Positions 4,601-47,959 of a stretch of 64,000 nt of DNA are shown here, piece by piece. Origin of the DNA: Candidatus Multivorans sp. Lineage in GTDB: Bacteria > Acidobacteriota > Thermoanaerobaculia > Multivoradales > Multivoraceae. A program made the translations under genes and the position numbers. The stretch covers positions 2,855,362 to 2,919,361 of the forward strand of contig OZ242040.1 in the NCBI GenBank assembly GCA_965205095.1, written 5' to 3'. The first letter of the stretch is position 1. Each line of letters begins with the position of its first letter. The notes below the pieces were generated by a model, which had not been told where the DNA came from, made no database searches, and was given only the letters and a program-made list of their open reading frames with translations.

Positions 4601-5400
4601 GGGCCCGCCAGCCGCTCGCGCAGCGCCTCCAGCCAGCGGTGCAACTCCCGCACACCGCCCAGGCCGTGCCTGGCGACGCTGTCGCGGCTGCCGTCCGGCT
4701 CCAGGCCGACGACGATCGCTGCGCCGCCGCCGCCCTGGGCGGCTTCGAACCCTTCCTCGTCGGTGATGTCGTCGCCGATGAACACGGGCGCTCGTCCGCG
4801 GAAGGGCGCTTCGGCCATGAAGTCCTCGACCACCGTGCGCTTGTTCGGGCGGTGCGGCTTGAGTTCGAGCACCATCTTGCCCTCCTGCACCCGGTAGCCC
4901 GAACCGAGTGCGGCGCGCACCCGCTCCATCGCCTCGCGGGCCGGGGCCTCTGCGTAGGCCGCGCGGCGGTAGTGGAGCGCCAGGGTCGCCGACTTGTCCT
5001 CCAGCAGCGTGCCCGGATGCTCGTCGACGAAGCGCTCCAGGTTCCGCCGCGCCGGTTCGAGCGCGGCCGAGCCGTCGCTCCGGCTGACCGCGCCGGCCGC
5101 CGACCGCCGCTCCAGGCCGTGCAGTCCCGCCGCCGGAAGGGCCAGCGGCGCGAAGAAGCGGTCGAGCACGTCGAGTGACCGGCCGCTGGCGAGCGCGAGC
5201 GCACCGTCGAGGCTCTCGCTGAGGCGGGCCAGCAGGCTGCCGACGCCTTCGTCGACATGGACCGCGTCGGGCGCCTCGGCGATCTCGATCAGGGTGCCGT
5301 CCACGTCCAGGAACAGGGCCCAGGAATCGGGCGGCGGCGCGGCGGAGCCCGTTTCCAGGAGGGCCCAGGCGGTGCGTGGCGGATGCGCTCTCTGCTTCAC
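4597..5400 (-). CDS. otsB: trehalose-6-phosphate phosphatase (HAD superfamily)
   Basis: ORF 4597..5400 with the LFLDVDGTL HAD motif I and OtsB-like length and context. It is divergent from otsA. Confidence 0.75.
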   Translation of the reverse strand: MKQRAHPPRTAWALLETGSAAPPPDSWALFLDVDGTLIEIAEAPDAVHVDEGVGSLLARLSESLDGALALASGRSLDVLDRFFAPLALPAAGLHGLERRSAAGAVSRSDGSAALEPARRNLERFVDEHPGTLLEDKSATLALHYRRAAYAEAPAREAMERVRAALGSGYRVQEGKMVLELKPHRPNKRTVVEDFMAEAPFRGRAPVFIGDDITDEEGFEAAQGGGGAAIVVGLEPDGSRDSVARHGLGGVRELHRWLEALRERLAGP

Positions 5401-5438: not shown

Positions 5439-6836
5439 ATGGCCCCTCAGGATCTGCCGGCTGCCCAGCAGTCGGAACTGGTGATTGTCGCCAACACCTT
5501 GCCCGTGCGTCGCGAGGAGGTGGATGGGGAACTGGGCTGGGCGCAAAGTCCCGGCGGCCTCGTCAGCGCCCTGTCGCCGATCGTGCGCGAGGCGGGCGGG
5601 TGCTGGGTGGGCTGGACCGGCGGCGCGGACGACGCGCCCGAGCCGTTCCGGCACGAAGGCATCCTGAACGTCGCGGTTCCGGTGTCGGAGGCGGAGGTCG
5701 CCGGCTCCTACCAGGGCATGTGCAACTCGACCCTGTGGCCGCTCTACCACGACGCGGTGCGGCCGCCCGAGTACCACCGCCACTGGTGGAACCCGTACGT
5801 CGCGGTCAACCGCCGCTTCGCCGAGGAGGCCGCGCGCCGTACCGCGCCCGGCGGCCGGGTGTGGATCCAGGACTACCACCTCCAGCTCGTGCCGCGGATG
5901 CTGCGCGAGCTGCGGCCGGACATCAGCTCCGGCTTCTTCCTGCACATCCCGTTCCCGCCGATCGAACTGTTCCTGCGCCTGCCGTGGCGGCGGGCGGTGC
6001 TGGAGGGACTGCTCGGCGCCGACGTGATCGGCTTCCAGACGCCGGCCGGCGCCTACAACTTCACGCGGCTCGCCGACCGGCTGATCGAGGCGGAGCCCCA
6101 GGGCGAGACGATCCGCTACCAGGGCCGCGACATCCGGGTCGGCGCCTTTCCGATCTCCATCGACACGGACCGCTACGCGAACGCGGCGCTGGCGCCCGAG
6201 ATCCGGGAGCGCGCCGAGCAGCTCCAGCAGCTCCGCCGCGGGCGGAAGATCATCCTCTCCGTCGACCGGCTCGACTACACGAAGGGCATCGACCTGCGGC
6301 TCAAGGCGTTCCTCGAGTGGCTGGGTCGCGAGGACCGATCGATCCGCGACGCGGTGATGGTCCAGGTCGCGGTGCCCAGTCGCGAGCGCATCTCGGAGTA
6401 CCAGATCCTGCGGCGCGACGTGGAGGAACTCGTCGGTCAGATCAACGGCGAGTACGGCGAACTCGGCGTCGTGCCGGTCCAGTACTTCCGGCGCAACCTG
6501 CCGTTCGAGGAACTCATCGCCTTCTACCTCGTCGCCGACGTGATGCTGGTGACGCCCCTCTGCGACGGCATGAACCTGGTGGCCAAGGAGTACGTCGCCA
6601 CGCGGCTCGAAGACGACGGCGTCCTCGTGCTCTCCGAGTTCGCGGGCGCGGCAGCCGAGCTGCCGGACGCCCTGCTGGTCAATCCCCACGACGTGAACGC
6701 GATGGCGGCCACGATTGAACAGGCGATCACCCTCGACCCGGAGGATGGAACGCGGCGGATGAAGGCAATGCGCGAGGTGGTTCGCCGCCACTCCGTCCAC
6801 GAGTGGGCGGCGCAGTTCATCGAGGCCCTGACCTGA
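5439..6836 (+). CDS. otsA: alpha,alpha-trehalose-phosphate synthase (UDP-forming), GT20
   Basis: In-frame ATG at 5439 (MAPQDLPAAQQSELVIVANTLPV...) within ORF 5376..6836. GT20 OtsA signatures are present throughout. The track's 5376 start would overlap otsB, so I rejected it. Confidence 0.85.
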   Translation: MAPQDLPAAQQSELVIVANTLPVRREEVDGELGWAQSPGGLVSALSPIVREAGGCWVGWTGGADDAPEPFRHEGILNVAVPVSEAEVAGSYQGMCNSTLWPLYHDAVRPPEYHRHWWNPYVAVNRRFAEEAARRTAPGGRVWIQDYHLQLVPRMLRELRPDISSGFFLHIPFPPIELFLRLPWRRAVLEGLLGADVIGFQTPAGAYNFTRLADRLIEAEPQGETIRYQGRDIRVGAFPISIDTDRYANAALAPEIRERAEQLQQLRRGRKIILSVDRLDYTKGIDLRLKAFLEWLGREDRSIRDAVMVQVAVPSRERISEYQILRRDVEELVGQINGEYGELGVVPVQYFRRNLPFEELIAFYLVADVMLVTPLCDGMNLVAKEYVATRLEDDGVLVLSEFAGAAAELPDALLVNPHDVNAMAATIEQAITLDPEDGTRRMKAMREVVRRHSVHEWAAQFIEALT

Positions 6837-8074
6837 CGCGGTATGGAACGGCGGGGCGTGCAACCGTGAAGGCCGGGCAGCAGCGCGGAGCACCCCCAGT
6901 CAGTGATGCCGAAGCGGGGTTCGAGGTAGGCGAGGGCTTCGAACGCTTTTCGCAGAAGGACGACATCTTCTGCCGTTCGTTCTGGGACCCCGAGGTGCGG
7001 ACCTCCCGCTCGGACATGTTCTACGAGACGTACCGCACGCCGGAGCTGCGCTGGCGTCCGGTCGACGGGTTCACGCGGCGCGACTACGCGCTACGCAACG
7101 CTTCCTGGCACGTCACCGACCTGTTCGCGGAGCTGCGGGGAGACGCCGACCGTCGCGAGGGCTTCCTCGACCCCTACACGGTGCTCCGGGACGGTCCGGG
7201 TCCGCCGGACGAGAGCGACGAACCGGAGGATGTCCTCGCCGCTCGACTCGCCGCCGATCTGAAGACGGCCGCCCACGCGCTGGGCGCCGACCTGATCGGC
7301 ATTACTGCAAACGACGAGCGCTGGGTGTACACACACGCGTACTCGCGGGAGAACGAGACGGAGAAACCGCAGGAGCTCCCGGGCGAACTCGGGAATGTCG
7401 TCGTCATTGCGCAGGCGATGGACCGGGGTCTGGTGGAGACCGTGCCGTCGGCCCTGAGCGGGACGGCGACAGGGGTCGGTTACAGCAGCGACACGGTGGT
7501 GCTGCTCGCGATCGCCCAGTACATCCTGAACATGGGCTACGCCGCGGTGCCGACGATGAACGACACGGCGCTGGCGATTCCGCTCGCGATCAAGGCGGGG
7601 CTGGGCGAATACGGCCGTCACGGGCTGCTGATCACCAGGGAGTTCGGCCCCAGGGTGCGGCTCGGGAAGATCTTCACCGACATGCCCCTGGCGCACGACC
7701 GTCCGTTGCGCTTCGGGGTGCGCGAGACCTGCGACGTGTGCCGCGCGTGTTCGGATGCCTGCCCGCCGAAGGCCATCGCGATGGACGCACCGGCGGACCG
7801 GATCTACAACATCTCCAACATCCGCGGCGTGAGGAAGTGGACGACGGACGCCGAGAAGTGCTTCCGGTTCTGGTCGAACCAGAACACCGACTGCTCGATC
7901 TGCGTCAGGGTCTGCCCCTACAACCGGGACTACTCCAGGCGCCTCAGCCGGCTCTGGAGGTGGATGGCGGGGACTCGCCTGCGCCGGCTCGCCCTCTGGC
8001 TCGACCGCCGGAGCGGCCGCGGACGGAGGGTTGAGCCCCAGACGTGGTGGGGCCGCGCCCTGCCTGGCTGGTAG
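6803..8074 (+). CDS. reductive dehalogenase / QueG-superfamily iron-sulfur protein (RdhA-like, non-respiratory type)
   Basis: The C-terminus has two ferredoxin-type motifs: CDVCRACSDACP, then C-x12-CSICVRVCPYNR (RdhA/QueG pattern). It also has LITREFGPRVRLGKIFTDMPL, which resembles the conserved RdhA core. There is no Tat signal and no rdhB neighbour. The start is uncertain: an alternative in-frame GTG at 6866 avoids a 34-nt overlap with otsA. Confidence 0.55.
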   Translation: MGGAVHRGPDLTRYGTAGRATVKAGQQRGAPPVSDAEAGFEVGEGFERFSQKDDIFCRSFWDPEVRTSRSDMFYETYRTPELRWRPVDGFTRRDYALRNASWHVTDLFAELRGDADRREGFLDPYTVLRDGPGPPDESDEPEDVLAARLAADLKTAAHALGADLIGITANDERWVYTHAYSRENETEKPQELPGELGNVVVIAQAMDRGLVETVPSALSGTATGVGYSSDTVVLLAIAQYILNMGYAAVPTMNDTALAIPLAIKAGLGEYGRHGLLITREFGPRVRLGKIFTDMPLAHDRPLRFGVRETCDVCRACSDACPPKAIAMDAPADRIYNISNIRGVRKWTTDAEKCFRFWSNQNTDCSICVRVCPYNRDYSRRLSRLWRWMAGTRLRRLALWLDRRSGRGRRVEPQTWWGRALPGW

Positions 8075-40173: not shown

Positions 40174-40191
40174 ACCTTCATGCGGCGGGGC

Positions 40192-40554
40192 CTATGCGTA
40201 GCCGCCGGCTGCCAGCCTGTCGAGATAAGCATGGACGTGCTCGGTTCTGCCTTCCCGCAGCAGCATGCACGCCGTTGCTCCACCGAATCCGGACAGCGGC
40301 TCCGAGCGAAACCAGGCGTAGGCCGCAAGCGGCGAGCCAGTTTCGGCCCGAACCTGGTTCAGAATCTCCAGCATCTGGCGGAGACGGCCTTGGGTCTTTC
40401 GAGCCCTGATCCGCGAGTCACGCGAGAGGGCGTCGCGCTCCAATCCAAGTGTGCCGGCGATCTCTGCCCTCGTGGTGCGCAACTCAGCGGCGATGAGCGC
40501 CGGAGACAAGACCTGGTTTTCGACGAGTCTCGCCAGAGCGCCCTTCGTCGTCAT
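40192..40554 (-). CDS. Xre-HTH + DUF2384 (MbcA/ParS-type antitoxin domain) protein
   Basis: ATG at 40552-40554 (MTTKGALARL...). It has an HTH-like LSPALIAAELRTTRAEIAGTLGL. The C-terminal WFRSEPLSGFGGATACMLLREGRTEHVHAYLDRLAAGGYA matches the DUF2384 toxin-binding domain consensus. Confidence 0.55.
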   Translation of the reverse strand: MTTKGALARLVENQVLSPALIAAELRTTRAEIAGTLGLERDALSRDSRIRARKTQGRLRQMLEILNQVRAETGSPLAAYAWFRSEPLSGFGGATACMLLREGRTEHVHAYLDRLAAGGYA

Positions 40555-41093
40555 TGCGGGAACAGGTCGAACACGTCGCCGGGCTTGTAGTCGGGTTTCA
40601 GGTCCCAGTACCACTCGTCGCCCTGCCAGACCCGTTTCGAGCCCAGTTCGCGGAGGCGGCCACGCAGACGATCGAGGGTGTCGGCCAGGCAGTTGTCGGG
40701 GTCGTGGAGGATGCGCGCGTCCTCGGTCATGTCGAGCAGGAGCGGGGTCCCGAGACGCAGCTCCCGGGGGGTCTTGAAGATGGGCGCCAGGCGGGTGTGG
40801 ATTCCGAGGTCGGCGGCCGTGTCGAACAACGGCTGCAGCCGGCCCGCCATGGTGCGGAACTCCTCGACCCGAGCGATCCGGCCATCCGGCAGATCTTCCG
40901 CCACGAGGAGGAGGTCGATGTCGGAGTCGGCCCTGGGCGTGGCGCGGCCGACGGATCCGTAGACGGCGAGGGCGGCCAATCGGCTTCCGTAGTGCGCCTT
41001 GCAGGCCTTGAGGACGGTGCCAAGGAGGTTGTCGTACTGACTCACCAGTCGCGCGGTCGCGCGGCTCTGCTCGGAGGATCGACGGACGGCCAT
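40551..41093 (-). CDS. nucleotidyltransferase (MNT fold) with C-terminal extension, translationally coupled to the DUF2384 gene
   Basis: ATG at 41091-41093 (MAVRRSSEQ...). VYGSVGRATPRADSDIDLLLV is the GS...DxD motif. Its stop overlaps the downstream start (ATGA at 40551-40554). Confidence 0.55.
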   Translation of the reverse strand: MAVRRSSEQSRATARLVSQYDNLLGTVLKACKAHYGSRLAALAVYGSVGRATPRADSDIDLLLVAEDLPDGRIARVEEFRTMAGRLQPLFDTAADLGIHTRLAPIFKTPRELRLGTPLLLDMTEDARILHDPDNCLADTLDRLRGRLRELGSKRVWQGDEWYWDLKPDYKPGDVFDLFPQ

Positions 41094-41160
41094 GGCTCCC
41101 TGATTGTAGGACGGACAGGCCATCACCGGTCCCGAGCCGGTCCCACAAACCGAGTGCGCC

Positions 41161-41230
41161 GGCATCCCCGCGGACTCAATCCACACTGGGTGCGCCGGCG
41201 CCCCCGCCGGCCTTAGTGGAGTCGCGCGGG
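41161..41230. repeat. REP-like repeat copy G (inverted) between glnS stop and MNT start
   Basis: cactgggtgcgccggcgcccccgccggcc. Confidence 0.65.
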
Positions 41231-43001: not shown

Positions 43002-43715
43002 TCAGCCGTCGAACCGGTACCCCAGCCCGTGTACCGTGACGATGAACTCCGGCCGGCCCGGACTCGGCTCGATCTTCTGCCGCAACGACGACACGTGCAC
43101 GTCGACGGTGCGGGTCGTCGGCGTCGCGTCGTAACCCCAGACCTCGTCGAGCAGCCGGTCCCGGTCGTGGACCTGCCCGCGGTGCTCGATCAGGAACCTG
43201 AGCAGCCGGTACTCGAGCGCCGAGCAGGCGACTTCGGACTCGGCTCCGCCGTCGTCGATGCGCCACACCTGGGCGCTGTCGAAGTCGACGCGGATGTTGC
43301 CGAAACGGTACGTGCCGTCGGCCGCCGTTGACGCCGTTGCTCCGGCCTGGCTGCGTCGCAGCAGCGCCTCGACCCGCGCCAGCAACTCCAACGTCTCGAA
43401 CGGCTTCGCGAGGTAGTCGTCGGCGCCGAGCTTGAGGCCGAGAACGCGGTCGACCAGTTCGTTGCGGGCGGTGAGCATGAGAATCGGCGTCGACGTGCCG
43501 CCCTGGCGCAGATCGCGACAGACGTCGAAGCCGTTCTTGCCCGGCAGGTTGACGTCGAGCAGGACAAGATCGAAGCTGCCGTCCGCGGCCAGCCGCTGCC
43601 CTGAAGGGCCGTCGCCTGCGACCTCGACTTCGTAGCCCTCGGCGGCCAACCGGTCGCCCAGGGTGCGGGCAAGGCTGGGTTCGTCCTCGACCAGGAGCAG
43701 GCGCCGGGACGTCAT
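43002..43715 (-). CDS. OmpR/PhoB-family response regulator
   Basis: ATG at 43713-43715. The receiver domain (LLLVEDEP... D in VLLDVNLPG) is followed by a winged-helix trans_reg_C. Its start overlaps the kinase stop. Confidence 0.8.
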
Positions 43716-45532
43716 GCGGCGCTCGCCGGCAGCGAGACGCTGAACGTCGTGCGCCCGGGCTCGCTGTCCACGGTGATGGAGCCGCCGTGCTCCTCGATCG
43801 TGTTGCGCGCGAGGCTCAGACCAAGTCCGGAGCCGGGCTGAGTGCCCTCGGTCGCGGCCTTGCCGCGGACGAAGGGGTCGAAGATCCGACGCTGCTCGGC
43901 CTTCGGGATCCCGGGGCCGCGGTCGGTGACGGCGACGGTCACCCGCCGCCGGGCGGCGTCGCAGCTCGCTTCGACGCGCGCTCGCACGGCGCCGTCGGCG
44001 TCCCGGCCGTACTTCGCTGCGTTGTGCAGGAGGTTCATGAAGGCCGTGATCAGGGCGTCGCGGTCGCCCGGGATCGAGGGCAGATCGTCCAGCCCTTCGA
44101 GGTCCAGTTCGACACCGTGCTCCTCCAGGAACCAGGTCGATTCGGCCACTGTCGCGCGCAGCAGTTCGCCGGGGTCGATCTCGGCAGTCGCGTTCCGGGC
44201 AGAAGCCCGGCCGATGCCCGCCCACTGGAGCGCCTGTGCGACCAGTCGGGACAATCGGCGCCCCTCGCGTTCGATCATCTCGCCGTAGCCGCGGACGTCG
44301 TCGGGCCTGTGGACGATTCCCGCGCGCAGGTTCTCGCCCGCCGAACGGATCGCCTGGAGCGGAGTGTTCAGTTCGTGGGAGACCCCGGCCACGAAGTCGA
44401 CCTGCTGGGCGGCGAGTGACTGCGCGCGGCGAGCGGAAACGAGGACCAGGCCAAAGCCCACCGCGATCAGGGTCAGGACTCCGGAACTGACATAGAGGTT
44501 CCGTCGGCGGGCGGCGCTCGTGGCCGCTTCAAGCGATCCGCTGCGATGGGTGATCCGAACCTGCCAGGCTCCGGCGGACCGGTCCCGGTCGCGGCCGCCG
44601 TCGCGGCGTTCTCGTTCGCCGAGTGAGAAGCGACGCCGGTCGTCGCGGTCGTCGCGGTCGTTCGGTCGGAAGCCCGGCCTGTCGCGGTCGCTCTGGCGTT
44701 CGCGGAACGGTCGCGTCCGCAGCACCCGGAACTGGATGTCCGCTGCCCCGGATGGGATGGTGGACGTGCGCCCTGGAGCGCCTGCCGGGTCGGGAAAGAC
44801 CTGGCGCGGCGCGGGGCCGGACACGTCGGTCACCGAAACCCGATAGGGCGGCTCCTCGCCGGGAGATACGGCGCCGAAGTACCGTTCGATCATCGCCGGG
44901 AGCATCTCCTGTTCGAGGACCGAGACCTCGATACTGGCCACGATCAGACTGGTCGGTGGGCCGGGGCGACCGCTCCGGTTCCGCGTCGGTAGCGGGATCA
45001 CGAGCCGGTCGGTACGCTGCGGCGGCGTCAGACGACCGGGCGGCCGCAGCGCGCGCACCGCTTCCTCCAGGTCGGCGGGTGCCCCGCCGGGCTCCAGTCG
45101 GCCGCTGTCCTCGTCGAGCCGGAAGGCGTTGCGCGTTCCTTCCCGGCGGTCGGTCAGCACGAGCCAGGTTTCGTCGAGAATGTACGGGAAGGCCGCGTTT
45201 CTCCGCCAGTCCCGGACGACTCGCGCCAAGAGTTCTTCGAACTGTGCCGGCTGCCCTGCCGTTGGAGCCCGGCCCGGCTCGGTCAGGGTCGCGACACGCA
45301 GGAGAGCGGTGTAGAGCTGAGCCAGGGGCGCTTCGATGTCCCCGGCAAGCAGCCGGCTCGACTCCTCCAGGTTCGCGCGCATCCGCTCGCTGGCGGCGGC
45401 GCTGAGTTCGCCGGTCCAGCGGTACTGGAGGACGGCGAGGGTCACGAGCAGGACGGAGGCGACCGCGGCGACGATCAGCGTCCAGCGGTTGCTCGAACCG
45501 GTCTTCAGTCCGGGAATGCGCCGGACAGCCAT
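43712..45532 (-). CDS. sensor histidine kinase (HisKA + HATPase_c) with Arg/Asp-rich periplasmic region
   Basis: ATG at 45530-45532 (MAVRRIPGL... with TM1). It has a second TM, an H-box (GVSHELNTPL) and N/G1/G2 boxes. The periplasmic segment contains a low-complexity RPNDRDDRDDRRRF...RDRDRS region. Confidence 0.7.
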   Translation of the reverse strand: MAVRRIPGLKTGSSNRWTLIVAAVASVLLVTLAVLQYRWTGELSAAASERMRANLEESSRLLAGDIEAPLAQLYTALLRVATLTEPGRAPTAGQPAQFEELLARVVRDWRRNAAFPYILDETWLVLTDRREGTRNAFRLDEDSGRLEPGGAPADLEEAVRALRPPGRLTPPQRTDRLVIPLPTRNRSGRPGPPTSLIVASIEVSVLEQEMLPAMIERYFGAVSPGEEPPYRVSVTDVSGPAPRQVFPDPAGAPGRTSTIPSGAADIQFRVLRTRPFRERQSDRDRPGFRPNDRDDRDDRRRFSLGERERRDGGRDRDRSAGAWQVRITHRSGSLEAATSAARRRNLYVSSGVLTLIAVGFGLVLVSARRAQSLAAQQVDFVAGVSHELNTPLQAIRSAGENLRAGIVHRPDDVRGYGEMIEREGRRLSRLVAQALQWAGIGRASARNATAEIDPGELLRATVAESTWFLEEHGVELDLEGLDDLPSIPGDRDALITAFMNLLHNAAKYGRDADGAVRARVEASCDAARRRVTVAVTDRGPGIPKAEQRRIFDPFVRGKAATEGTQPGSGLGLSLARNTIEEHGGSITVDSEPGRTTFSVSLPASAA

Positions 45533-45585
45533 GGGCGGCAGTGTAGCCGCAGGCAGCGCCAGGGAAACCGTGTTGGCGCAGGGCT

Positions 45586-45625
45586 TTACAAGCGTTACAA
45601 ACATCTTGCAGCGGCTTGATGACTG
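45586..45625. promoter_or_regulatory. 40-bp element TTACAAGCGTTACAAACATCTTGCAGCGGCTTGATGACTG (copy 1), 67 nt upstream of the cytochrome gene and in the kinase-divergent intergenic region
   Basis: Identical to 46323-46362. It contains the direct repeat TTACAA-n3-TTACAA and a -35-like TTGCAG. Confidence 0.55.
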
Positions 45626-45692
45626 GCCTCCTGCGGGTCCGTACGGTTCCTCGCGTTCGATTCCCGTCCCGCCAAATGAGGAGCTGCCTGAA

Positions 45693-46307
45693 ATGAAGAC
45701 ACCCCGGAACCGTTCGATCGTGTTCACGCGCACCTTGCTGCCTGGCCTGCTGCTCGTGGCCGCCGCTTCGTCCGCGAATTGCCAGGAGTGGGAGCGCCGC
45801 TCGGACGAGCGCTGGAGGCGCGGCGATGCCCGCGCGGCAATCAGCCCGGAAGCGCTGGCGGCGATGCGACCGGTGCTCGAGCTCCAGGGCGACCCGCAGC
45901 GGGGCGAGGCCCTGTTCCGCGACCTCTGCGCGCGTTGCCACCTTGCCGGGGACATCGGCGGTGGACCGGGCCCCGATCTCTCCGGCGTCGGCGGCTGGAG
46001 CCCGGAGAGACTCCTGCACGACCTTCTGAATCCGAACGCGGAGGTGGACGCCGACTATGCGAGCTACGTCGTCGAAACGGTCGAGGGCGAGGTGTTCTCC
46101 GGACTCCTGGCTGAGAGTCCGGGCGGCGACGTCGTCCTGCTCACTGCTGGAGACACCACTGTCAGCCTCCCCGCCGGGCGGATCCGGGAGGTGCGCAAGG
46201 ACGACCTGTCCATGATGCCCGAAGGGCTGCTGGCGGGTCTCGAGCCCGCGGATGTGGCCGATCTTCTCGCGTTCCTGCGTCCCTCCGGGCAGCGAGACCG
46301 CAGGTAG
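45693..46307 (+). CDS. secreted c-type cytochrome / PSCyt-type heme-binding domain protein
   Basis: Signal peptide, then the CARCH heme-binding motif. The C-terminus (...MMPEGLLAGLEPADVADLLAFL) resembles the Planctomycete/Verrucomicrobial-type heme-binding domain. Confidence 0.55.
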   Translation: MKTPRNRSIVFTRTLLPGLLLVAAASSANCQEWERRSDERWRRGDARAAISPEALAAMRPVLELQGDPQRGEALFRDLCARCHLAGDIGGGPGPDLSGVGGWSPERLLHDLLNPNAEVDADYASYVVETVEGEVFSGLLAESPGGDVVLLTAGDTTVSLPAGRIREVRKDDLSMMPEGLLAGLEPADVADLLAFLRPSGQRDRR

Positions 46308-46322
46308 CGCGTGCGGCACGCC

Positions 46323-46362
46323 TTACAAGCGTTACAAACATCTTGCAGCGGCTTGATGACTG
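46323..46362. promoter_or_regulatory. 40-bp element copy 2, 65 nt upstream of the Spy/CpxP-like gene
   Basis: 100% identical to 45586-45625. The RBS and signal-peptide regions downstream are also similar between the two genes. Confidence 0.55.
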
Positions 46363-46427
46363 ACCGCCGCGGCGACCCGTACTGTTTGTCCACGTTTGAT
46401 TCCCTGCCACCCAAGGAGGTGCTTGAA

Positions 46428-46940
46428 ATGAGAACAACCCTGAGACGTTCGATGTCGATCGCCCGCGTTCTGCTTCCCGGTCTGCTGCTCGCAGCCGGGG
46501 CCATGGTCGCGGCGGCAGATGATGGCGATGATCGCGGCTCCAGGCGCGGTGCGCGCGGCGACTTCGCGGAGCGCGACGCCGAACGCATGGCCCGAGCGCT
46601 CCAGTTGACCGAATCCCAGCAGGAGGAGTGGCGGCGTCTGCGCGAGGAGCACGAAGCGAGCGTGCGATCTCTGATGCGCCAGATGCGCGACACGACGGAG
46701 CGCCTCGAGACCGAGGCGGACCTCCAGAGCCCCGACCCGACCATCGTCGGGCAGTTGGAGCTCGACCGGCGGAGCATCGTGCGCCAGTTGAGAGAGTCGC
46801 GAACCCAGGTCGACGAGGACCTGGCGCGGCTGCTCGACCGCGACCAGACGATCCGCTGGGAAGCCCTGCGGGAGAACGGCCGCGGCGGCTTCCGGGGACC
46901 CTTTGGCCCCGGTGGGCGCGGTCCTCGTCCTCGGAACTGA
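46428..46940 (+). CDS. periplasmic Spy/CpxP-family (LTxxQ motif) protein
   Basis: ATG at 46428 with an AAGGAGG RBS. It has a signal peptide and the LQLTESQQEEW LTxxQ motif, and a helical charged composition. The upstream part of the track ORF was rejected. Confidence 0.5.
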   Translation: MRTTLRRSMSIARVLLPGLLLAAGAMVAAADDGDDRGSRRGARGDFAERDAERMARALQLTESQQEEWRRLREEHEASVRSLMRQMRDTTERLETEADLQSPDPTIVGQLELDRRSIVRQLRESRTQVDEDLARLLDRDQTIRWEALRENGRGGFRGPFGPGGRGPRPRN

Positions 46941-46967
46941 ACCGGAGGCAACCAGCCTCCATTGCAT

Positions 46968-47003
46968 GGGCGGGCGTCCTTCGGGCGCCCGCCCTTCTTC
47001 GTT
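46968..47003 (+). terminator. rho-independent terminator (GGGCGGGCG-loop-CGCCCGCCC + TTCTTCGTT)
   Basis: 9-bp perfect GC stem followed by a T-rich tract, 28 nt after the Spy-like stop. Confidence 0.6.
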
Positions 47004-47074
47004 CGGCGGCGCTAGGATCGCGCCTCATCGATCAGTTCGGGCGGCGCGACAGGCCGCTTGAGGAGGCGCTTGGT

Positions 47075-47959
47075 ATGGCAGACGTTGCGTTCGTCGGACT
47101 TGGAGTCATGGGATACTCGATGGCCGGCCACCTGGCGGCCGCCGGCCACCGGGTGACGGTGTACAACCGCACGGCGGCCAAGGCGGAGCAGTGGGTCGGA
47201 GAGCACGGCGGCAGGAGCGCCCCGACTCCGGCCGAGGCGGCGGCGGGCGCCGAGTTCGTCTTCTGCTGCGTCGGCAATGACGACGACGTGCGGGCGGTGA
47301 CCCTGGCGCAGGGCGGCGCGCTGGAGGGCATGGCCGCGGCCAGCGTGCTCGTCGACCACACGACGGCGTCGGCGCGGCTCGCCCGCGAACTCGCGGGGGC
47401 GTGCGCGGAGAAGGACCTCGGCTTCGTCGACGCGCCAATCTCGGGTGGCCAGGCCGGCGCCGAGAACGGGGCGCTGACCGTCATGTGCGGCGGCGAAGCG
47501 GACGTCTTCAAGCGGGTGAACGCGGTCATCGACTGCTACAGCCGGGCGGTCACCCTGCTCGGCCCGGCCGGCAGCGGCCAGTTGACGAAGGCCGTCAACC
47601 AGCTCTGCATCGCCGGCATCGTCCAGGGCCTCTCCGAGGGCATCCACTTCGCCGAGAAAGCCGGCCTCGATCCGCTGGCGGTCATCGGCGCGATCTCGAC
47701 CGGCGCCGCCGGCTCCTGGCAGATGGACAACCGCGCCGAGACGATGGTCCAGGGCAAGTTCGACTACGGCTTCGCGGTCCAGTGGATGCGCAAGGACCTC
47801 GGGATCGCGCTGGAGGAGGCTCGGCGGAACGGCGCCCACCTGCCAATGGCTGCGCTCGTCGACCAGTTCTACAGCGAGGTCACCGCGCTCGGCGGCCTGC
47901 GCTGGGACACGTCGAGCCTGGTGGTGCGGCTGCGGTCGATGAGTGAGGGCGGCGGCTAG
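47075..47959 (+). CDS. NAD(P)-dependent oxidoreductase, 3-hydroxyisobutyrate dehydrogenase family
   Basis: ATG at 47075 with an AGGAGG RBS. FVGLGVMGYSMAGHL is the N-terminal Rossmann motif and HIBADH blocks are present. Confidence 0.8.
   Translation: MADVAFVGLGVMGYSMAGHLAAAGHRVTVYNRTAAKAEQWVGEHGGRSAPTPAEAAAGAEFVFCCVGNDDDVRAVTLAQGGALEGMAAASVLVDHTTASARLARELAGACAEKDLGFVDAPISGGQAGAENGALTVMCGGEADVFKRVNAVIDCYSRAVTLLGPAGSGQLTKAVNQLCIAGIVQGLSEGIHFAEKAGLDPLAVIGAISTGAAGSWQMDNRAETMVQGKFDYGFAVQWMRKDLGIALEEARRNGAHLPMAALVDQFYSEVTALGGLRWDTSSLVVRLRSMSEGGG

Follow-up and report, generated by a model that had tools for sequence, protein, structure and literature searches.

A 64-kb stretch of the contig OZ242040.1 from Candidatus Multivorans sp. 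(64,000 nucleotides with a G+C content of 69.6%, analysed as a whole and referred to below as the window) contains two exact copies of a 40-nt element, TTACAAGCGTTACAAACATCTTGCAGCGGCTTGATGACTG, on its forward strand. The element lies beside an operon encoding a sensor histidine kinase and an OmpR/PhoB-family response regulator, and ahead of two genes for secreted proteins, a mono-haem c-type cytochrome and an LTXXQ protein of the Spy/CpxP/ZraP superfamily. We propose that the element is a promoter-operator of this two-component system, through which the system would activate both its own operon and its neighbours, and we put the probability of this reading at roughly 0.7. The evidence consists of the conservation of the element, its spacing, its distribution at a single locus, its co-inheritance with the two-component system and the identities of the surrounding genes; the protein that binds, the choice between activation and repression, the transcript starts, the signal and any feedback are what we infer.

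A previous examination of this DNA, made from the letters alone and called here the sequence-only reading, had reported two identical 40-bp copies, each located 65-67 nt before an open reading frame with a similar ribosome-binding site and signal peptide, and both the coordinates and the gaps were reproduced. The two copies are 737 nt apart and, with start codons at 45693 and 46428, precede the ATG by 67 nt (copy 1) and 65 nt (copy 2); GGAG-type ribosome-binding sites precede both target genes, whose products begin with similar N-termini resembling signal peptides. Copy 1 falls, as had also been claimed, in a divergent region shared with the kinase-regulator operon, which spans 160 nt between the kinase start (45532, reverse strand) and the cytochrome gene, and copy 2 begins 15 nt past the cytochrome stop codon. 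No match to the 40-mer was found in 100 dinucleotide-preserving shuffles of the window with up to 3 mismatches allowed. Outside the 40-mer, the two upstream regions share about 70% similarity that runs through the 5' untranslated region (UTR), the ribosome-binding site and the signal peptide to about 45762 and 46497, so the duplicated unit comprises promoter, leader and signal peptide. Within this unit, identity is fully kept only in the 40-mer (100%, compared with about 70% in the flanks). The element contains the direct repeat TTACAA-GCG-TTACAA, and the opposite-strand arrangement GTAAC-N4-GTAAA given by the sequence-only reading is found in copy 1 (GTAAC-GCTT-GTAAA), while copy 2 ends in GTAAG (GTAAC-GCTT-GTAAG).

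Comparison with related loci points to selection on the element itself. Among 31 unique copies from about 20 species, only positions 12, 25-28, 39 and 40 vary. For the loci recovered with the 20-nt core of the element (L007-L029) the query itself dictated positions 1-20, and the loci recovered by protein homology (L001-L006) display the same invariance. Across relatives the 40-mer remains at least 37/40 identical, while four-fold degenerate sites in the genes for the kinase, the regulator, the LTXXQ protein and glutaminyl-tRNA synthetase (GlnRS) are only 47-75% identical to the window in distant loci, and the intergenic flanks are in places unalignable. This pattern argues that the 40-mer is under purifying selection. 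Because it is kept across species whose four-fold sites have diverged, and because the two copies in L001 differ at one base, the identity of copies within a genome needs no gene conversion. In order, the aligned upstream regions consist of GGCTTTACAAGCGTT(A/G)CAAACATCTTGC, 4 variable nt, GCTTGATGACTG, 12-13 variable nt, CCGTAnnGT, 5-7 variable nt, CACGTTTGATTCC and the ribosome-binding site. Second copies in L016, L018 and L022 carry substitutions in the repeat or the spacer (an ACG spacer, TTACGA and TTACCA), owing to which they were missed by the exact scan described below; they constitute natural variants of the candidate operator.

The distribution of the element is equally restricted. 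Using the exact 20-nt core, TTACAAGCGTTRCAAACATC (the first 20 nt of the 40-mer), as a query against 185,579 species genomes, we recovered 23 stretches, 22 of them from Thermoanaerobaculia/'Candidatus Multivorans' genomes and every one of these at the same kinase-regulator locus. The remaining stretch (L017, 7462-7481), from a Clostridia bin, matches over the 20 nt only, inside unrelated sequence, and is a chance match, of which about 2 were expected. Each of ten complete chromosomes from the same group (4.5-5.1 Mb, OZ244786.1 and OZ245033.1 among them) has exactly one core locus, beside the kinase-regulator operon. Within the window itself there is no other TTRCA-N3-6-TTRCA pair (shuffle mean 0.15) and no further match to TTACAANNNTTACAA with up to 2 mismatches. 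Given this single locus per chromosome and the lack of other pairs in the window, the element is neither a dispersed repeat nor, by exact and near-exact matches, the mark of a wider regulon. The sequence-only reading had allowed that the element might prove to be a generic repeat found at many unrelated loci, and the genome scan with the exact core instead places it at one locus per complete chromosome.

Metagenome-assembled genomes of Acidobacteriota supplied the homologues of the LTXXQ protein (55-92% identity), and the gene order common to their loci is GlnRS, regulator, kinase, element, LTXXQ. Two 'Ca. Multivorans sp.' loci (L028 and L029) are among the closest fetched, with an LTXXQ protein 98% identical and kinase, regulator and GlnRS 94-97% identical; the window's own LTXXQ protein had no exact counterpart in the assembly collection. 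One distant LTXXQ homologue (P0044, in L005) is not syntenic and lacks the element. A marine (TARA) relative, L004, has a second LTXXQ paralogue (6649-7134) downstream of the first, with no module seen upstream of it (L004 6500-6650). In the literature we found nothing on 'Candidatus Multivorans' or on Acidobacteria two-component systems with LTXXQ proteins.

The module also occurs beside much more distant kinases, and this provides the main argument for its binding partner. Of three loci fetched for distant members of the kinase family, two have the same repeat beside the kinase and in the same orientation: L030 (TTTACATCTCCTTACAAAG), where the divergent gene encodes an EF-hand protein, and L031 (TTTTACATTCTTAACAAAC), where the divergent gene is of unknown function. 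In the third, L032, no repeat was seen upstream of the gene neighbouring the kinase. A metagenome scan with a 5-sequence alignment of the sensor domain (A3; a 13-sequence alignment, A2, was too divergent) yielded 80 further loci of the L031 type from soil Acidobacteria (L033-L112), whose sensors are about 30% identical to that of the window. TGT(T/A)A(A/C)-N3-4-TGTAAA is present on the kinase strand in 78 of these 80, mostly 66-78 nt upstream of the kinase (57-150 nt overall), and only 2 matches to it occur elsewhere in 357 kb on both strands. The soil consensus, written on the target strand as TTTACATTCTTAACAAnnTCTTTGCnnnnGCTTAACGAC, can be aligned base for base with TTTACAAGCGTTACAAACATCTTGCAGCGGCTTGATGAC of the window, and a -10 sequence, (A/G)ATAAT, follows 18-19 nt downstream in all 32 copies (of 64 unique) that allowed both landmarks to be placed. 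Overall, the soil regulators share about 60% identity with the window regulator, and in the 24-residue recognition-helix region they are almost identical to it. Their divergent gene is unrelated and codes for a secreted, Gly/Arg-rich protein of 355 aa for which Pfam gave no match (L036 1315-2382, reverse strand). These comparisons indicate that the module travels with the two-component system and not with the target. Since the kinase-regulator operon is the sole partner common to all module-carrying loci, it is the adjacent regulator that probably binds the module.

On the target side, TAnnGT is found 18-19 nt past GATGAC in all 31 unique copies, across a spacer of variable sequence. L004, L016 and L018 lack the preceding CG of CGTA yet keep TAnnGT, and for this reason a sigma-70-type -10 (TAnnnT) is favoured over the CGT of the extracytoplasmic function (ECF) type. 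Taken together, the hexamer, a spacer constrained in length and free in sequence, and the poor -35 ATGACT would fit an activator-dependent promoter. A promoter scan of 45400-47100 based on the E. coli consensus detected none, which this pattern would explain; our promoter calls therefore rest on conservation across species. Three other arrangements were considered. A promoter wholly inside the 40-mer, with the second TTACAA as -35 and GATGAC as -10, was set aside, as GATGAC lacks the invariant final T and the better-conserved TAnnGT lies downstream at a constant distance. A sigma-54 reading (TTACAA-N5-TTGC, spaced as in TGGCAC-N5-TTGC) was rejected because the GG is absent, and an ECF-type reading, GAC-N16-CGTA, is weakened by the three loci that have lost CGTA. 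The conserved block at the predicted transcript start of both target genes, C(A/G)CGTT(T/C)GATTCC, has TTGAT in common with the module, whose 3' part contains it about 43 nt further upstream.

Similar regularities are seen in the other direction. A TA(C/G/T)(A)(C/G)T hexamer stands 6-8 nt ahead of the kinase start codon in both kinase families, whether this codon is ATG, as in the window family, or GTG, as in the soil family. TANNNT has been described as a signal of leaderless genes (PMC3160421), and the mRNA of the kinase and regulator is thus probably leaderless. The TGTAAA half-site is 39 nt from the kinase -10 in the window clade, which has the longest of the three versions in its family (window 45546-45585 set against L003, L006, L011, L014 and others); ten other loci have 29 nt, L003 has 19 nt, and nearly all soil loci have 38-40 nt. 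These 10-nt steps, or whole helical turns, are what would be expected of an activator site that depends on the face of the helix. In L002 (about 5117-5235) and L004 (about 5730-5880), insertions of 100-130 nt with inverted repeats (e.g. GGAGCTTGAGCC...GCGCAAGCTCC) separate the operator from the kinase -10, and these may be small mobile or structured elements.

These observations lend themselves to a mechanism in which the primary site of the phosphorylated regulator would be the 5' direct repeat, (T)TTACAAG-C-GTTACAAA, with TTACA as the half-site and TTACAAGCGTTACAA as the predicted protected stretch. Units beginning with TT start at element positions 1 (TTACAA), 10 (TTACAA), 21 (TTGCAG) and 31 (TTGATG), and the weaker TTGCAG and TTGATG, which follow at successive intervals of 11 and 10 nt, may accommodate another dimer of the regulator. 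The 3' ATGACT would act as a poor -35 and, together with TAnnGT 17-18 nt downstream, would form a weak, activator-dependent promoter of the sigma-70 type. Predicted starts are at about 45654-45656 for the cytochrome gene, at about 46392-46394 for the LTXXQ gene, and no more than 1-2 nt from the kinase ATG. With its centre about 60 nt from each of the two starts that flank it, copy 1 would drive the cytochrome gene one way and the kinase-regulator mRNA the other way, the latter amounting to positive autoregulation. Copy 2, originating from duplication of promoter, 5' UTR and signal peptide, would give the LTXXQ gene a regulated promoter of its own, and, if CpxP and ZraP are a guide, the LTXXQ protein may in turn exert feedback on the kinase. 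A winged-helix regulator and direct repeats about one helical turn apart near a promoter, the features by which OmpR-family operators are recognised, are all present in the sequence. The claim of the sequence-only reading that the element reveals the regulator's binding site and regulon can consequently be kept for the site, where a selected module is tied to an OmpR-family system and its direct repeat is the best candidate, and given up for the regulon, as no site beyond this locus emerged from the near-match scans of the window or from the exact 20-nt core in genomes.

Several points weigh against this proposal. The 9-nt period of the half-sites is shorter than the 10-11 nt usual for OmpR-family sites, and forty near-invariant bases exceed what a regulator dimer and a -35 usually need, with the blocks ACATCTTGC and GCTTG left without an assigned contact. 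The second copies in L016, L018 and L022 tolerate changes in the repeat or the spacer. The scan with the E. coli consensus came back empty, the proposed -35 and -10 matching only about 7 of 12 consensus positions, and because of the insertions in L002 and L004 the coupling of operator and kinase promoter, and with it autoregulation from this operator, cannot be universal. Finally, a different factor that co-occurs with the locus may be responsible. The module could, for instance, be the promoter of an alternative sigma factor of the ECF type, or the site of a regulator encoded elsewhere, with the adjacent regulator not binding at all. The ECF-like geometry of GAC-N16-CGTA in most copies, the empty sigma-70 scan and an invariance wider than that of a typical regulator site are all in keeping with this, and LTXXQ/Metal_resist genes are often under ECF control. 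We nonetheless regard this as unlikely given the loci that dispense with CGTA and keep TAnnGT, a conserved neighbourhood free of sigma and anti-sigma genes, a TTACA direct repeat typical of OmpR-family regulators, and a kinase-regulator operon that is the only neighbour common to both module-bearing families.

Even if the regulator does bind the module, it could repress rather than activate, as the weak TT units extend into the -35-like ATGACT, and autoregulation would then be negative. This seems to us improbable: the core promoter is weak by consensus, which suits dependence on an activator, and a main repeat placed at about -60 relative to both predicted starts, like the 10-nt steps towards the kinase, is typical of activation from upstream. 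Overlap with the -35 in the manner of a Pho box is, moreover, an activating arrangement in PhoB. Far less credible is the idea that the copies are identical simply through recent duplication, gene conversion or a small mobile repeat without a function of its own. It would account for two exact copies 737 nt apart and for similarity that reaches into the UTR and signal peptide, but not for flanks so much less alike than the 40-mer, for its retention across species with four-fold sites near saturation, for a single locus per genome or for the one-base difference in L001. A structured RNA (riboswitch, leader or small RNA) is similarly hard to entertain, although strong non-coding conservation upstream of two genes and a further conserved block in the 5' UTR might suggest one: there was no Rfam match (E<=1), the fold of 45580-45700 is no better than that of shuffles (z = +0.51), and the UTR alignment folds at -0.15 kcal/mol with neither compensatory change nor covariation. 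Furthermore, because the conserved -10-like hexamer lies downstream of the 40-mer, transcripts from this promoter probably do not include it.

The relatives also suggest how the locus was assembled. Three layouts were found: module then LTXXQ gene with no cytochrome gene (e.g. L003, L004 and L006); module, cytochrome gene, second module and LTXXQ gene (the window clade, L016, L018 and L022); and module, cytochrome gene and LTXXQ gene without a second module (L002, L023 and L025). In the last of these the cytochrome stop abuts CGTTTGAT, the leader block of the LTXXQ gene (5963-6000 in L002), and the two genes form a simple operon that lacks a second promoter. On the strength of these three layouts, the LTXXQ gene is the older, ancestral output, to which the cytochrome was added via a copy of leader and signal peptide.

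The identities of the genes largely agree with what had been proposed. Pfam domains of the regulator and kinase identify an OmpR-family two-component system, as the sequence-only reading had stated. In NCBIfam the regulator is ranked closest to RpaB, MtrA, YycF and PhoB, all below their equivalog cut-offs, and its nearest solved relatives are RegX3, MtrA and RpaA. The kinase stop codon overlaps the regulator ATG (ATGA, 43712-43715), which suggests translational coupling. No Pfam match was obtained for the N-terminal 370 residues of the kinase, which define a family in Acidobacteria (close relatives 45-95% identical, distant ones about 25-33%) and whose sensor domain is predicted by structural modelling to be double-Cache-like; it includes an Asp/Arg-rich low-complexity loop at residues 275-315 or so, modelled with low confidence (pLDDT <50 at 276-314). 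The second target had been called an LTXXQ Spy/CpxP-like protein, and it matches PF07813 (27.1 bits, cut-off 24.3) and contains an LTESQ motif; for PF13801 it reaches 28.1 bits, under the cut-off of 29.2. Its homologues bear the source names 'Spy/CpxP family protein refolding chaperone' or 'periplasmic heavy metal sensor', and its Gly/Arg-rich tail, GRGGFRGPFGPGGRGPRPRN (46875-46937), resembles the GGFRGG repeats of the divergent secreted protein in the soil family. The first target is a c-type cytochrome with CxxCH, as had been suggested, and matches NCBIfam TIGR02603 (100.5 bits, cut-off 68.15) and the generic Cytochrom_C profile; the PSCyt-type domain attributed to it was not recovered, neither PSCyt1 nor PSCyt2 of Pfam matching even at E<=10. 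Adjoining the GlnRS gene is a toxin-antitoxin-like pair of HEPN and nucleotidyltransferase genes (about 40190-41216 in the window; annotated in L001 1-659), which some relatives have and others do not.

Table 1. Genes and putative control signals at the kinase-regulator locus (positions in the window).
Feature	Position	Strand	Remarks
OmpR/PhoB-family response regulator, 237 aa	43002-43715	-	Pfam Response_reg and Trans_reg_C
Sensor histidine kinase (HisKA/HATPase), 606 aa	43712-45532	-	Extracytoplasmic domain of about 300 aa, predicted double-Cache-like
-10-like TACACT, putative promoter of the probably leaderless kinase-regulator mRNA	45540-45545	-	7 nt before the kinase ATG
GGAAACC block between operator and kinase -10	45563-45569		Alignment of 19 unique first copies; possibly kinase -35 region
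40-nt module, copy 1	45586-45625	+	TTACAA-GCG-TTACAA 45586-45600; TTGCAG at 45606; TTGATG at 45616; -35-like ATGACT 45619-45624
-10-like TACGGT, putative cytochrome promoter	45642-45647	+	18 nt past GATGAC
Conserved block CGCGTTCGATTCC at predicted transcript start	45652-45664	+	No RNA structure, no covariation
Secreted mono-haem c-type cytochrome, 204 aa, CxxCH	45693-46307	+	TIGR02603 haem-binding domain
40-nt module, copy 2	46323-46362	+	
-10-like TACTGT, putative LTXXQ promoter	46380-46385	+	19 nt past GATGAC
Conserved block CACGTTTGATTCC at predicted transcript start	46391-46403	+	No RNA structure, no covariation
Secreted LTXXQ protein (Spy/CpxP/ZraP superfamily), 170 aa	46428-46940	+	Gly/Arg-rich C-terminal tail
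Intrinsic-terminator-like hairpin and T tract	46968-47004 (hairpin 46968-46994)	+	Ends the transcription unit

The sequence-only reading had described the locus as Cpx-like, and this holds for its wiring, which parallels cpxP-cpxRA of E. coli, but not for family membership. The regulator scores 155.7 bits against the CpxR model (NF008199; cut-off 341), which ranks 13th behind RpaB, MtrA, YycF, PhoB, CreB, OmpR and others; the kinase scores 82.9 bits against CpxA (cut-off 486) and the LTXXQ protein 24.7 bits against CpxP (NF009391; cut-off 148). In both systems an OmpR-family operon is divergent from a small periplasmic LTXXQ gene, with direct repeats in the shared control region, and autoregulation and possible feedback by the LTXXQ protein are proposed here as well. 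The LTXXQ gene is directly divergent from the kinase in L003, L004 and L006, while in the window the cytochrome gene stands between them. Here, however, the kinase precedes the regulator, its mRNA is probably leaderless, the sensor is a predicted double-Cache and not the single PAS-like domain of CpxA, and no wider regulon was found. The suggested resemblance to the CpxR box is a loose one: GTAAC-N4-GTAAA (copy 1) and GTAAC-N4-GTAAG (copy 2) differ from GTAAA-N5-GTAAA in spacing, and the half-site is closer to the RpaB HLR1 site and to the 9-nt MtrA repeat; it is only the loosest form of the CpxR box, GTAAA-N4-8-GTAAA (PMC5063474), that the element would fit, with one or two mismatches.

Other known systems resemble the locus in part. 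In zraP-zraSR of Enterobacteria, which responds to zinc and envelope stress, a CpxP/Spy-superfamily gene is likewise divergent from an operon with the kinase ahead of the regulator, and the periplasmic protein ZraP is both an output and a modulator; ZraR is, however, an NtrC-type sigma-54 activator, whereas the regulator here is of the OmpR type and the promoter lacks the GG/GC of sigma-54. RpaB of cyanobacteria is the top NCBIfam model for the regulator (204.8 bits, under the equivalog cut-off of 330). Its HLR1 site consists of two (G/T)TTACA(T/A)(T/A) units 2 nt apart (PMC6525291), which the half-sites TTTACAAG and GTTACAAA match at 7/8 and 8/8 positions, though here the repeats are 1 nt apart and phylum, kinase and targets are unrelated. 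MtrA of Actinobacteria, the second-best match in NCBIfam and among solved structures, binds a tandem 9-nt box, GTCACAgcg (PMC4285127), with the same hexamer-plus-gcg build as TTACAAgcg TTACAAaca in the element. Its hexamer differs, the score is 194.6 bits against a cut-off of 300, and its kinase and biology are different. In the pho box of PhoB and the tandem sites of OmpR, head-to-tail half-sites are about one helical turn apart and the promoter-proximal one extends to the -35 of a promoter that is itself weak, an arrangement that the element shares, except that its first period is 9 nt and its site is predicted from sequence.

Transcription control in Acidobacteria is, to our knowledge, almost entirely unexplored, and the Thermoanaerobaculia considered here are uncultured. 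A two-component system that controls itself and a neighbouring periplasmic chaperone-like protein is a well-known type of circuit, and the gain is a well-defined new example of it, not a new principle. The locus provides predictions derived from sequence, namely an operator, two core promoters, a probably leaderless and autoregulated kinase operon, and natural variants in spacing and sequence. It also illustrates how a new gene, that of the cytochrome, was wired into an existing circuit through copies of promoter, leader and signal peptide. More tentatively, and at somewhat under even odds in our estimation, the locus could belong to a signalling family that extends across the Acidobacteria and is as yet undescribed. 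Such a family would combine a kinase whose double-Cache-like sensor is new, a regulator whose recognition helix is fixed, and an ancient bidirectional promoter-operator of about 39 nt, still alignable base for base between classes, with a leaderless kinase mRNA to one side and a swappable secreted output (LTXXQ chaperone, Gly/Arg-rich or EF-hand protein) to the other. If so, the circuit would sense a small ligand and not misfolded envelope proteins, and a periplasmic cytochrome c would have been drawn into it in one lineage when these three parts were duplicated.

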